Source of the DNA: Bacillota bacterium
GTDB lineage: Bacteria; Bacillota; Clostridia; Christensenellales; Aristaeellaceae
Assembly (NCBI GenBank): GCA_023416585.1
Contig: JAEZHM010000088.1
Location: forward strand, 35,967-59,966
Reading direction: 5' to 3'
Length of the DNA stretch: 24,000 bases
Shown: one piece after another, positions 5,451-7,174 of the stretch
Layout of the letters: each line of letters begins with the position of its first letter
Position numbering within the stretch: position 1 is the first letter of the stretch
Translations under genes and position numbers: made by a program
Notes under the pieces: generated by a model
Seen by the model: only the letters and a program-made list of their open reading frames with translations
The model's database searches: none
Told to the model about the DNA's origin: nothing

Positions 5451-5744
5451 TTAGCAACAGTCACCGCCGCCTGAACAATCACAACTCGGTTCTTTTCCAG
5501 TAAGCCAGCCCTTCATAACAGCGGCTGCACACCCCACACCTGAATCAACAGCAATAGCATGTGCAGGACAGTTTACCGCGCAGGCACCGCACTCCATACA
5601 TAGGTCTTTGTCATATATCTGTGCTTTTCTATCATTGATCTTGAATACGCCATGCGGACATACCTCTGTACATCTCCCGCACCCAACACACTTTTCACTA
5701 AAAAGGCGAAGTGTCGCCACGTTTTTTAAATATCTATGTTTCAT
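5451..5744 (-). CDS. hgcB: HgcB, the 2x[4Fe-4S] ferredoxin of the mercury-methylation pair
   Basis: It has two CX2CX2CX3CP motifs (CVGCGRCTEVCP, CMECGACAVNCP), the extra conserved Cys in GVGCAAA, and a C-terminal Cys pair (...SCDCSGGGDCC). The N-terminus 'RYLKNVATL' is typical of HgcB. It lies immediately downstream of hgcA. I start it at ATG 5744 (GAGGG 6 nt upstream) rather than the track's 5750. Confidence 0.88.
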   Translation of the reverse strand: MKHRYLKNVATLRLFSEKCVGCGRCTEVCPHGVFKINDRKAQIYDKDLCMECGACAVNCPAHAIAVDSGVGCAAAVMKGWLTGKEPSCDCSGGGDCC

Positions 5745-5757
5745 AATCATCCCTCTT

Positions 5758-6882
5758 TTAAGCCCACAAGCTCTTGATCAACAACAGTACAATTCCCGCT
5801 ACAGATGAAAGTACAATAAACGGCACCGCTACCTTCATTTCCTTAATAACGCCAGAGAAGGAAGTATACGTAGATGAGCCTGTAAAATTCATAGCCAAAT
5901 ATGCTGAATACGACGGCAGTACCAGCAGATAACTTATGGAGCGAAGGAAAAATTCAGAGGAAAACCAGCCGTTTAGCAATATACATCCCAGTGTCCAGAA
6001 TAGCCCTAACAGCCATCCCTTCCATGCGAACGCTTTACCGGGAATAAAGGGGAGGAATACAGGCGTAAGAACGGTTCCCATGACCACGGCGCCTAAATAC
6101 ATAATGAGATCCGCCAGCACAAAAGGCTGTGCAGCAAACAGGTTAATAAGGAACAATACTCCGAAAACCATTAATGAAGTCTTTGCAGCAGCCACCAGTT
6201 CCATGGGAGTGAGAACCAACCTGTCCCATGTTGAGAATTTTACAGTTCGCATTTCCTCTGTGGCGCTGAAGCCGGAATTTACAAATGCCTTTATATCCTT
6301 TGCTCTTACAGGGCCGTAAAGCACTGAAAATCCGGTTTGCTTCGTCACTTCATAAGCGCTTACACCAGAAGCGCCCAACTGTGGCAATATCAACGTTCTA
6401 TGCGATACGATTTTTGATAATCTTGTTTTTGATATACGTTTTACTAATTCATTGGTACCAAACGTACCTTTACCGGCAGCGCACCAGACGTTGATTCCCT
6501 TCGTATCGAGAATCAAAAGCCAGCAACTTAAGCCTGTAAGCTCTTGTCTTAATGTATCGAATGTCAGTTTATAGTTTGCACTCACCAAAACAGGAGATGC
6601 TTGATCAGGATTTCCTATGGCATAAAGGCCAGGATCGACCGTGTAATCCATTCTCCCTATGCCCCAGCGTACTTTCCACGCACCCAACGTATCATTCATA
6701 TTCAATGTCGTGGAAACAATAGGTGCAGCACCTTGTGAAGTATGGATTTCACCCACTATCCATTTTTCGTTTATCTTTCTTGGCGGGAGGGCTTCCGCCT
6801 CATTATTATTGCCAACTGAGCAGCAACAGCTTTTCTCCTTATTTATTTTCATTACACTCTTTACAACAATTTGCTTTTTCAT
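5758..6882 (-). CDS. hgcA: HgcA, the corrinoid membrane protein of the mercury-methylation pair
   Basis: It carries the diagnostic cap-helix motif N(V/I)WCA(A/G)GK in 'LDTKGINVWCAAGKGTFGT'. Upstream blocks are 'WKVRWGIGRMDYTVDPGLYAIGNP' and 'SPVLVSANYKLTFD'. The C-terminal multi-helix membrane domain contains 'NFTGSSTYTSFSGV'. The start is ambiguous: ATG 6882 has AGGAGG 12 nt upstream, and ATG 6852 is the alternative. Confidence 0.9.
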   Translation of the reverse strand: MKKQIVVKSVMKINKEKSCCCSVGNNNEAEALPPRKINEKWIVGEIHTSQGAAPIVSTTLNMNDTLGAWKVRWGIGRMDYTVDPGLYAIGNPDQASPVLVSANYKLTFDTLRQELTGLSCWLLILDTKGINVWCAAGKGTFGTNELVKRISKTRLSKIVSHRTLILPQLGASGVSAYEVTKQTGFSVLYGPVRAKDIKAFVNSGFSATEEMRTVKFSTWDRLVLTPMELVAAAKTSLMVFGVLFLINLFAAQPFVLADLIMYLGAVVMGTVLTPVFLPFIPGKAFAWKGWLLGLFWTLGCILLNGWFSSEFFLRSISYLLVLPSYSAYLAMNFTGSSTYTSFSGVIKEMKVAVPFIVLSSVAGIVLLLIKSLWA

Positions 6883-7174
6883 TGCAAATACAATCCTCCT
6901 TACTGGAAGTTAGGTTGCAGTAAAACTGCTTCGTTTTGCTGATGGTATCTGTGTCAAGCGAGTAATACGTCCATTTGCCTTTTTCGTTTGCTTTTACTAA
7001 CCCGCATGCACACAGGAGTTTCATATGATGTGACAGTGTGGATTGAGACATTTGAAACTTTTCTAAAATCATACAGGCACAAAGCTCGCCGCAGGAAAGC
7101 ATGTCAACGATCATGACCCTTTTGGGGTCTCCAAGTGCCTTGAATACTTTTGCTTGCGCCACATACTTTTCCAC
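6839..7174 (-). CDS. ArsR/SmtB-family metalloregulator, unusually Cys-rich (11 Cys in 111 aa)
   Basis: GTG start at 7174 with GAGGTG 5 nt upstream. It has a winged-HTH core ('FKALGDPKRVMIVDML', 'SQSTLSHHMKLL', 'KGKWTYYSL') and the alpha-3 metal site 'SCGELCAC'. A second CAC occurs in 'LLCACG'. The C-terminal tail is 'DCICNEKANCCKECNENK'. Confidence 0.85.
   Translation of the reverse strand: MEKYVAQAKVFKALGDPKRVMIVDMLSCGELCACMILEKFQMSQSTLSHHMKLLCACGLVKANEKGKWTYYSLDTDTISKTKQFYCNLTSSKEDCICNEKANCCKECNENK

Follow-up and report, generated by a model that had tools for sequence, protein, structure and literature searches.

A predicted mercury-methylation unit, arsR-hgcA-hgcB, of the clostridial type in an uncultured Bacillota bacterium

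The formation of methylmercury involves a pair of proteins, the corrinoid protein HgcA and the ferredoxin HgcB. HgcA was reportedly recognized as the mercury methylation corrinoid protein by Parks et al. in 2013. Here, we describe an arsR-hgcA-hgcB gene set on the minus strand of a 24,000-nucleotide stretch of DNA (hereafter, the window; positions 35,967 to 59,966 of contig JAEZHM010000088.1, assembly GCA_023416585.1) from a Bacillota bacterium assigned to Clostridia, Christensenellales, Aristaeellaceae.

Much of what is known about this system comes from Pseudodesulfovibrio mercurii ND132, whose arsR2, hgcA and hgcB genes (DND132_1054/1056/1057) have the same order and strand as the genes described here, with an ArsR-family regulator directly upstream. 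In ND132 HgcAB, S-adenosylmethionine (SAM) is the methyl donor, and residues C93, C73 and C94/95 are functionally important. Cobalamin binding by HgcA, its methylation by SAM and its requirement for methylmercury formation have been shown for ND132 and a few other strains only, and all hgcAB-positive organisms tested up to 2015 methylated mercury (Hg). In ND132, arsR is co-transcribed with hgcAB, regulates these genes and responds to arsenic (As); to date, only a Desulfovibrio-type strain has served for studies of hgcAB regulation. Among 31 confirmed methylators, 14 carry an arsR gene upstream of hgcA.

Closer in sequence are the Firmicutes-type hgcAB loci of Acetivibrio mesophilus/straminisolvens, Ruminiclostridium hungatei, and metagenome-assembled genomes (MAGs) of Christensenellaceae and Clostridia, in which HgcA is 69-76% identical to the protein encoded in the window. 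More distantly, HgcA is related to the large subunit of the Wood-Ljungdahl corrinoid iron-sulfur protein (CFeSP; AcsC/CfsA; PDB 2h9a, 4djd), with which it shares a homologous corrinoid-binding Rossmann-like domain and cap helix (E = 1e-10 over ~150 residues).

In the window, we found a complete and unfused arsR-hgcA-hgcB set, and we estimate a probability of roughly 0.88 that it is a self-contained transcription unit of the Hg-methylating, clostridial (Firmicutes) type. It is not a new kind of system but marks one more predicted methylmercury producer. What it adds is incremental: a conserved clostridial operator, a CxC pair in ArsR, and lineage-specific changes at the arsR/hgcA junction.

The arsR-hgcA-hgcB unit and its protein products

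The three genes are closely spaced minus-strand open reading frames (ORFs). arsR (6839..7174) has a GTG start and encodes an ArsR/SmtB-family winged-helix regulator of 111 aa. hgcA (5758..6882) encodes the corrinoid protein, with 374 aa when read from its first ATG (M1) and 364 aa from M11 at position 6852. hgcB (5451..5744) encodes a ferredoxin with two [4Fe-4S] clusters and 97 aa; an alternative ATG extends this frame to 5750..5451, or 99 aa. The arsR and hgcA genes overlap by 44 nt from M1 or by 14 nt from M11, unlike in ND132, and the hgcA stop is followed by the hgcB start after 7 nt (first ATG, 5750) or 13 nt (second ATG, 5744). The second ATG has an AGAGGG ribosome-binding site 6 nt upstream and is the start used in Logan gene calls, and the exact 97-aa call is present in Logan contigs. 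None of the three frames is interrupted, and no catalytic or cluster-binding residue is missing. Among 82 related loci, hgcB is adjacent to hgcA in 74 and arsR lies upstream in 48. A preliminary description of this DNA, made from its letters and an ORF list, had placed a complete unit at these coordinates, with the overlap and the 7- or 13-nt spacing, and had quoted the HgcA and HgcB motifs discussed below; the ORFs and family models bear out the unit and its spacing, and each of the quoted motifs is present.

Family membership was assigned with NCBIfam equivalog hidden Markov models (HMMs) and their curated cut-offs. HgcA matched the HgcA_corrinoid equivalog NF040863 over profile positions 2-323 of 325 with 480.3 bits (cut-off 275; E = 2.7e-144), and HgcB matched the HgcB_ferredoxin equivalog NF040864 over positions 1-93 of 93 with 136 bits (cut-off 99; E = 2.8e-40). 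HgcA was below the cut-off of the HgcAB-like fusion model NF043039 (211.5 vs 285 bits; HgcB had 58 bits on the same model), and also below that of the CFeSP model NF003195 (86.1 vs 306 bits), in which only positions 319-445 of 450 were matched. In Pfam, HgcB belongs to the Fer4 families.

The cap-helix motif GINVWCAAGKGTFG is encoded at 6457..6498 (minus strand) and comprises HgcA residues 129-142. Within it, Cys134 (codon at 6481-6483) is the predicted cobalt ligand. Among 51 aligned homologues, no variation was seen at N131, at W133 or at any position from C134 to G142. The motif agrees with the HgcA consensus N(V/I)WCA(A/G)GK, and ND132 HgcA has a like cap helix, NVWCAAGK. In alignment with CFeSP, Cys134 is opposite the cap-helix Thr in the SVLTAWAAG stretch of PDB 2h9a; this replacement of Thr by Cys is the defining trait of HgcA. 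The two proteins differ in further respects. HgcA is without the N-terminal [4Fe-4S] and TIM-barrel parts of CFeSP and has an added five-helix membrane domain, and its partner is a ferredoxin, whereas that of CFeSP is the small subunit.

The C-terminal membrane domain of HgcA (5764..6204, minus strand) has five predicted helices, at residues 227-251, 256-279, 285-304, 312-333 and 342-373, and contains the motif NFTGSSTYTSFSGV at residues 332-345. Five long helices over residues 227-373 were seen in an AlphaFold2 model built from a 51-sequence alignment, and a hydropathy scan recovered four of the five (helices 1, 2, 3 and 5). The model has low confidence (mean predicted local distance difference test score, pLDDT, 57.7) and was used solely for the helix count and for disorder at the N-terminus.

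The exact HgcA sequence is present on a 348-kb NCBI contig and on ENA/Logan metagenome contigs. The best named relatives of HgcA are 69-76% identical to it, and the best among GTDB representatives is 75% identical. In a neighbor-joining (NJ) tree of 78 HgcA sequences, the protein groups with Firmicutes-type sequences, on its own long branch beside a clade of Acetivibrio, Christensenellaceae, Peptococcaceae and other Clostridia MAGs. The preliminary description had proposed such a placement, together with HMM searches and alignment of the cap-helix and HgcB Cys residues, as checks of the assignment, and all of these agree with it. By likeness to ND132, HgcA of this organism would bind cobalamin, accept a methyl group from SAM and be needed for methylmercury formation.

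HgcB (97-aa numbering) has two CX2CX2CX3CP motifs, C19/22/25/29-P30 and C49/52/55/59-P60. They are followed by Cys72 in GVGCAAA, 13 residues past C59, and by a tail containing C88-D-C90 (SCDC) and the terminal C96C97. HgcB is described in the literature as having one Cys ~12 residues past its second cluster motif, Cys73 in ND132, and one or more Cys at the C-terminus, Cys94/95 in ND132. Comparison with ND132 HgcA, HgcB and ArsR2 was made through the HMMs and published residue numbers; by the latter, Cys19/22/25/29, 49/52/55/59, 72 and 96/97 match ND132 Cys20/23/26/30, 50/53/56/60, 73 and 94/95, so that the cluster and mid-protein Cys pattern is offset by one residue. The tail has four Cys in the window and two in ND132. 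The SCDC sequence had been taken for a peculiarity of this locus, but it is common among related loci: an EPSCDCS...CC tail occurs in most of the closer relatives among 74 adjacent HgcB examined, and HgcB has been published with up to four additional C-terminal Cys.

The hgcB gene can be overlooked in annotation. ENA-derived gene calls lack hgcB at 11126-11682 of locus L001 and at the equivalent positions of L083 and L085. The 97-codon ORF is nevertheless intact in all three, and the Logan calls have it. Surveys based on ENA calls would score such genomes as hgcA-only, and methylators would thus be mis-scored.

The N-terminal extension of HgcA contains Cys19-Cys20-Cys21, encoded by TGT TGC TGC at 6820..6828 (minus strand). 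In the low-confidence model, the first 40 residues of HgcA are without secondary structure and have pLDDT values under 50. Most HgcA proteins have an N-terminal extension bearing a PCUGP selenocysteine motif, as is also proposed for ND132, and some have CC instead and are 'packed' with extra Cys (Haft, bioRxiv 2022, 10.1101/2022.07.06.499078). The window protein shares with these the vicinal chalcogen pair at a similar place, its CCC being 20 residues from W41 and the CU of Geobacter GSU1440 being 21 residues from the Trp. It differs in being the non-selenoprotein form, with three Cys from Cys codons and no in-frame UGA. The Cys tract was rejected as a novelty in view of this earlier work, and it is not a local peculiarity, as had been suggested for it: in the stretch of 60 residues that precedes the conserved WKVRWG, CCC is found in 88 and CC or more in 109 of the 115 closest homologues amenable to anchoring. 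Typically the sequence is EKSCCCSxxSCCSTE, which contains five Cys. What is truly local is loss of the second CC pair, as the window lineage has CCCSVGNNNEAE where relatives have CCCSxxSCCSTE. An extreme expansion of the CC/CU type was seen in homologue P0103, which has an N-terminal tract of ~60 residues with repeated CC pairs (SCCS.., DNCC.., DSCC..).

A second local change concerns the start of hgcA. Most close relatives have ATGAGTAA as a joint arsR stop and hgcA start, and the ATG of this overlap is ATA in the window. The start is thus left to M11 (6852) or M1 (6882). M1 has AGGAGG 12 nt upstream, and M11, the in-frame ATG at -14, is also present in about half of the close relatives.

ArsR, promoter and candidate operator

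ArsR matched HTH_5 (PF01022; E = 1.8e-13) and NF033788 (92.9 bits; cut-off 55), and its closest relatives in PDB are CzrA and other ArsR-family proteins. Its Cys residues include an alpha3-type pair, ELC32AC34, together with C28, C55 and C57, and a Cys-rich C-terminal region with C86, C95-I-C97 and C103-C104-K-E-C107. The ELCxC pair is kept in 40 of 41 hgcA-linked ArsR proteins and the tail Cys in 22-30 of them, the tail (CIC...CCKxC) being common to the clade. ND132 ArsR2 is described with Cys26 and a four-Cys site (47, 49, 86, 88) and is by this description set apart from the window ArsR with its five Cys and six tail Cys. Judged from published positions, C32/C34 could correspond to ND132 Cys47/49; in place of a second CxC ~39 residues further on, the window protein has C55/C57 and its Cys-rich tail.

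A predicted sigma-70-type promoter precedes arsR at 7207..7235 (minus strand). It has a -35 box TTTACA, a 17-nt spacer and a -10 box TATAAT, and agrees with the consensus in 11 of 12 positions. The same promoter is aligned in 22 related loci, whose HgcA proteins are 64-93% identical to that of the window, and its -35 box is TTGACA in most of them. The shared layout is -35, TTCGATTTGA, -10, TCATATCGA, TAGATTTGAGGTG and the start codon. On the minus strand, no promoter-like site was found between arsR, hgcA and hgcB, and Rfam searches at gathering thresholds yielded only two tRNAs and no riboswitch before the operon.

An inverted repeat, TCGATTTGA-N9-TCATATCGA, encloses the -10 box (7199..7225, minus strand) and is a candidate ArsR operator. 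The palindrome is perfect in loci L083-L086. A search for TCGATTTGA-N8-13-TCAWATCGA gave one hit in the window and no hit in 100 shuffles. An exact match to the operator is present in 14 of 86 fetched loci, once per locus, always before arsR and nowhere else. ArsR is the probable ligand of the site. Two 26-nt direct repeats (AATCATAT...GATTTGA) span 7184..7242 (minus strand) and are 33 nt apart, one over the -35 box and the other over the 5' untranslated region. The second repeat holds a third half-site, TAGATTTGA, directly before the GAGGTG ribosome-binding site.

Comparison with the Firmicutes-type loci shows both what is common and what is particular to the window. Common are the gene order, promoter and operator, the ArsR Cys tail, HgcA EKSCCC and the HgcB EPSCDCS..CC tail. 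The window differs in having no second CC pair and no ATGAGTAA overlap, a half-site gap of 9 rather than 12 nt, a GTG start of arsR, and the long HgcA branch.

At the upstream boundary of the unit, a perfect 13-bp hairpin followed by a T-run (7269..7303, minus strand) serves as terminator of two tRNA-Ser genes and lies directly before the arsR promoter. At the downstream boundary, a hairpin at 5292..5323 is located between hgcB and a convergent gene for a 458-aa protein. Its T-run is on the plus strand only, and as an intrinsic terminator for the minus-strand hgcB it is therefore predicted to be weak or absent.

Proposed function and alternative explanations

From these features and the published work, the following mechanism can be proposed. 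The promoter at 7235..7207 would drive transcription of arsR-hgcA-hgcB, and an ArsR dimer would probably repress its own operon through the inverted repeat around the -10 box. Such autorepression may be relieved when a thiophilic ligand binds the ELCxC pair, possibly aided by the Cys-rich C-terminal tail. Translation of arsR and hgcA is likely coupled through the 14- or 44-nt overlap, and hgcB would be translated from its own ribosome-binding site, 13 nt past hgcA. As in the HgcAB work on ND132, with which the presumed chemistry is shared (SAM to cobalamin to Hg(II)), the two [4Fe-4S] clusters of HgcB would carry electrons that reduce the HgcA-held cobalamin to Co(I), SAM would convert Co(I) by methylation to CH3-Co(III), whose axial ligand would be the cap-helix Cys (in the window protein, Cys134), and the methyl group would then pass to Hg(II). 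Flexible Cys arms, formed by HgcB C88/C90/C96/C97 together with Cys72 and probably by the N-terminal CCC of HgcA, are thought to present Hg(II).

Several points weigh against an intact, regulated Hg-methylation unit. In the window lineage, the usual hgcA start codon (ATG to ATA) and the second CC pair of the HgcA N-terminus are lost, the -35 box (TTTACA) is weaker and the operator half-site gap is 3 nt shorter. The ratio of nonsynonymous to synonymous substitutions (dN/dS) of hgcA, 0.36-0.56, is rather high for an enzyme, the ratio being inflated by low divergence. The structural model of HgcA is of low confidence. No clean terminator was found 3' of hgcB, where the sole hairpin folds like shuffled sequences (z-score -1.0), and the host is known from metagenome contigs alone. 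In model strains, hgcAB is reportedly not under the control of Hg, and the four-Cys arrangement of ND132 ArsR2 is different, so that another effector may act on the window ArsR; experiments have identified As(III) alone as an effector, and this for the ND132 homologue. The argument for horizontal transfer, given below, is one of composition only, with no flanking direct repeats or integrase around the three genes.

The alternative that survives best accepts the genes as true hgcAB and so overlaps with the reading as an Hg-methylation unit. It holds that the role under selection is another one that depends on the corrinoid, for instance the removal of halogens from halomethanes by reduction, or chemistry connected with As or with SAM and S-adenosylhomocysteine (SAH), Hg methylation being a side reaction. 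We regard it as possible, though clearly the less probable account. A 2026 preprint describes dechlorination of CCl4 by heterologously expressed HgcAB and support of growth of model methylators by this activity, but the claim comes from this single preprint. ND132 ArsR2 responds to As and SAH, hgcAB is not induced by Hg, and hgcAB is widespread in environments without Hg. The window ArsR also has an ELCxC pair of the classical As(III) kind, like Cys32/Cys34 of R773 ArsR. On the other hand, paired Cys arms like these are typical of proteins that traffic Hg(II), the 24 kb contain no ars, dehalogenase or methyl-transfer genes, and nothing within the window bears on the substrate.

Could the locus instead be a relic, a horizontally acquired cassette that looks intact but is decaying or silent, no longer expressed or active? 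The start codon and CC pair losses, the 3-nt deletion between the operator half-sites, the weaker -35 box, the hgcA dN/dS and the long NJ branch all point in this direction. Two relatives with 95.5-97.6% nucleotide identity across the three genes were used for the dN/dS estimates, and these revealed purifying selection, with values of 0.03-0.07 for hgcB and 0.23-0.29 for arsR. Replacements in hgcA relative to these sequences are mostly conservative, and none is in the cap helix. At highly conserved columns the window HgcA is no outlier, with 8 deviations in 203 (set median 6, maximum 12), and decay of the locus was rejected on this ordinary count. The three frames are open, the catalytic and cluster-binding residues are in place, alternative in-frame ATGs with ribosome-binding sites are available to hgcA, and three diverged relatives have retained the unit at this site. 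We conclude from these comparisons of sequence that the locus is intact and maintained, and a relic appears very unlikely.

Finally, the source records of several homologues of the large ORF give the name acetyl-CoA synthase subunit gamma or that of the CFeSP large subunit, its sole Pfam match is CdhD and its PDB matches are CFeSP chains. Identity as a CFeSP subunit or as a fused-type, non-Hg-methylating HgcAB-like paralogue is refuted, however, by the HMM cut-offs given above (86 vs 306 and 211.5 vs 285). The match to only the last ~125-155 residues of the CFeSP large subunit, the Cys in place of the cap-helix Thr, the five-helix membrane domain and the separate hgcB gene also speak against it, and it can be practically dismissed.

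Genomic surroundings and biological meaning

The three genes differ in composition from their surroundings. Their GC content at third codon positions (GC3) is 0.38-0.45, compared with 0.55-0.72 in all 14 neighboring genes, and their overall GC content is 0.44. The low GC3 suggests that they were probably acquired horizontally from a lower-GC donor among Clostridia.

Two tRNA-Ser genes (7311-7402 and 7441-7529, minus strand; anticodons GCU and UGA) with their own promoter-like site (7582..7554) are located beside arsR. In the related locus L083 (6430-6449 and 9552-9571), an island of ~3.1 kb with integrase and Abi_alpha genes lies at the 3' end of tRNA-Ser(GCU), before arsR. Its flanks are direct repeats in which 23 nt of the 3' end of the tRNA gene recur; the window has the empty site. 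A type I restriction-modification (R-M) cluster is located beyond the tRNA genes in L083. The only further match to the 3' end of tRNA-Ser(GCU) in the window, 17/20 bases, was observed at 6261-6280 (minus strand), in the codons for VNSGFSA, and was reached by no shuffle. It was considered as an island border and taken as chance, as it is inside hgcA and not flanking. The low GC3 and the location next to a tRNA-Ser gene used for integration agree with the horizontal spread already known for hgcAB.

The preliminary description had placed the unit among sugar-utilization genes, and the neighbors are indeed sugar-related. They encode an AraC-type regulator, an ABC transporter solute-binding protein and two permeases, a gluconolactonase-type protein, an aldolase of the dihydrodipicolinate synthase family, a galactonate-dehydratase-family enzyme, a short-chain dehydrogenase/reductase and a GH35-like protein. 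This cluster (10719-20773), with a divergent AraC-type regulator of 807 aa, resembles a non-phosphorylative route from sugar to sugar acid. Two relatives whose HgcA is 93% identical share the other flank, with the gene for a protein of three NTTRR-F1 domains, MatE and DUF998 and on to Ku. On the tRNA side, one of them has an integrase/Abi/type I R-M island and the other has prophage-like genes. Because the sugar genes are replaced there, they appear to be incidental neighbors that are functionally unrelated to hgcAB.

Other features of the window were as follows. The 458-aa protein convergent with hgcB (3824-5200, plus strand) consists of three tandem NTTRR-F1 domains (NF033675), a Firmicutes domain of no assigned function, and its gene is kept beside hgcB in the two relatives. 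SpoIIP and Ku are encoded on the same or syntenic contigs and, together with the NTTRR-F1 domain, support an assignment to Bacillota, probably Clostridia. For the neighboring dehydratase, the best hit was 79% identical and the next ones ~62%, with mixed names. A 352-aa ORF (14214-15272) has no family match. In a 163-aa ORF (22160-22651, plus strand), an N-terminal fragment of glycoside hydrolase family GH38 (profile positions 78-145) is joined to a C-terminal fragment of GH125 (339-413), and this ORF appears to be a pseudogene of two alpha-mannosidase genes or what a deletion has left of them. An overlapping ORF upstream of it (21762-22229) has no family match.

For the biology of Hg methylation, the locus would place one more uncultured, spore-forming, sugar-fermenting Bacillota lineage among many predicted methylmercury producers, and the general picture is unchanged. 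The suggestion that such an organism represents a less-studied physiological type is correct as far as studies in culture are concerned, but the type is not new, since saccharolytic and other fermentative hgcA-positive organisms, including polysaccharide-degrading Clostridia, are documented. The operator TCGATTTGA-N9-12-TCAWATCGA over the -10 box and the ArsR CxC pair offer a testable handle on the regulation of clostridial hgcAB. A tentative and, in our estimate, rather unlikely extension is that the three genes of the clade form a mobile cassette inducible by thiophilic metal(loid)s. Through its ELCxC pair of the classical As(III) type and its tail of vicinal Cys, ArsR would detect As(III), Hg(II) or another soft metal of this sort and lift the repression of hgcAB at a strongly conserved operator, and the three co-conserved flexible Cys arms (the ArsR tail, HgcA CCC and the HgcB tail) would share one ligand chemistry. 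If this were true, methylmercury formation would be a regulated response in fermentative Clostridia, and not a constitutive, Hg-blind trait as in model sulfate reducers.

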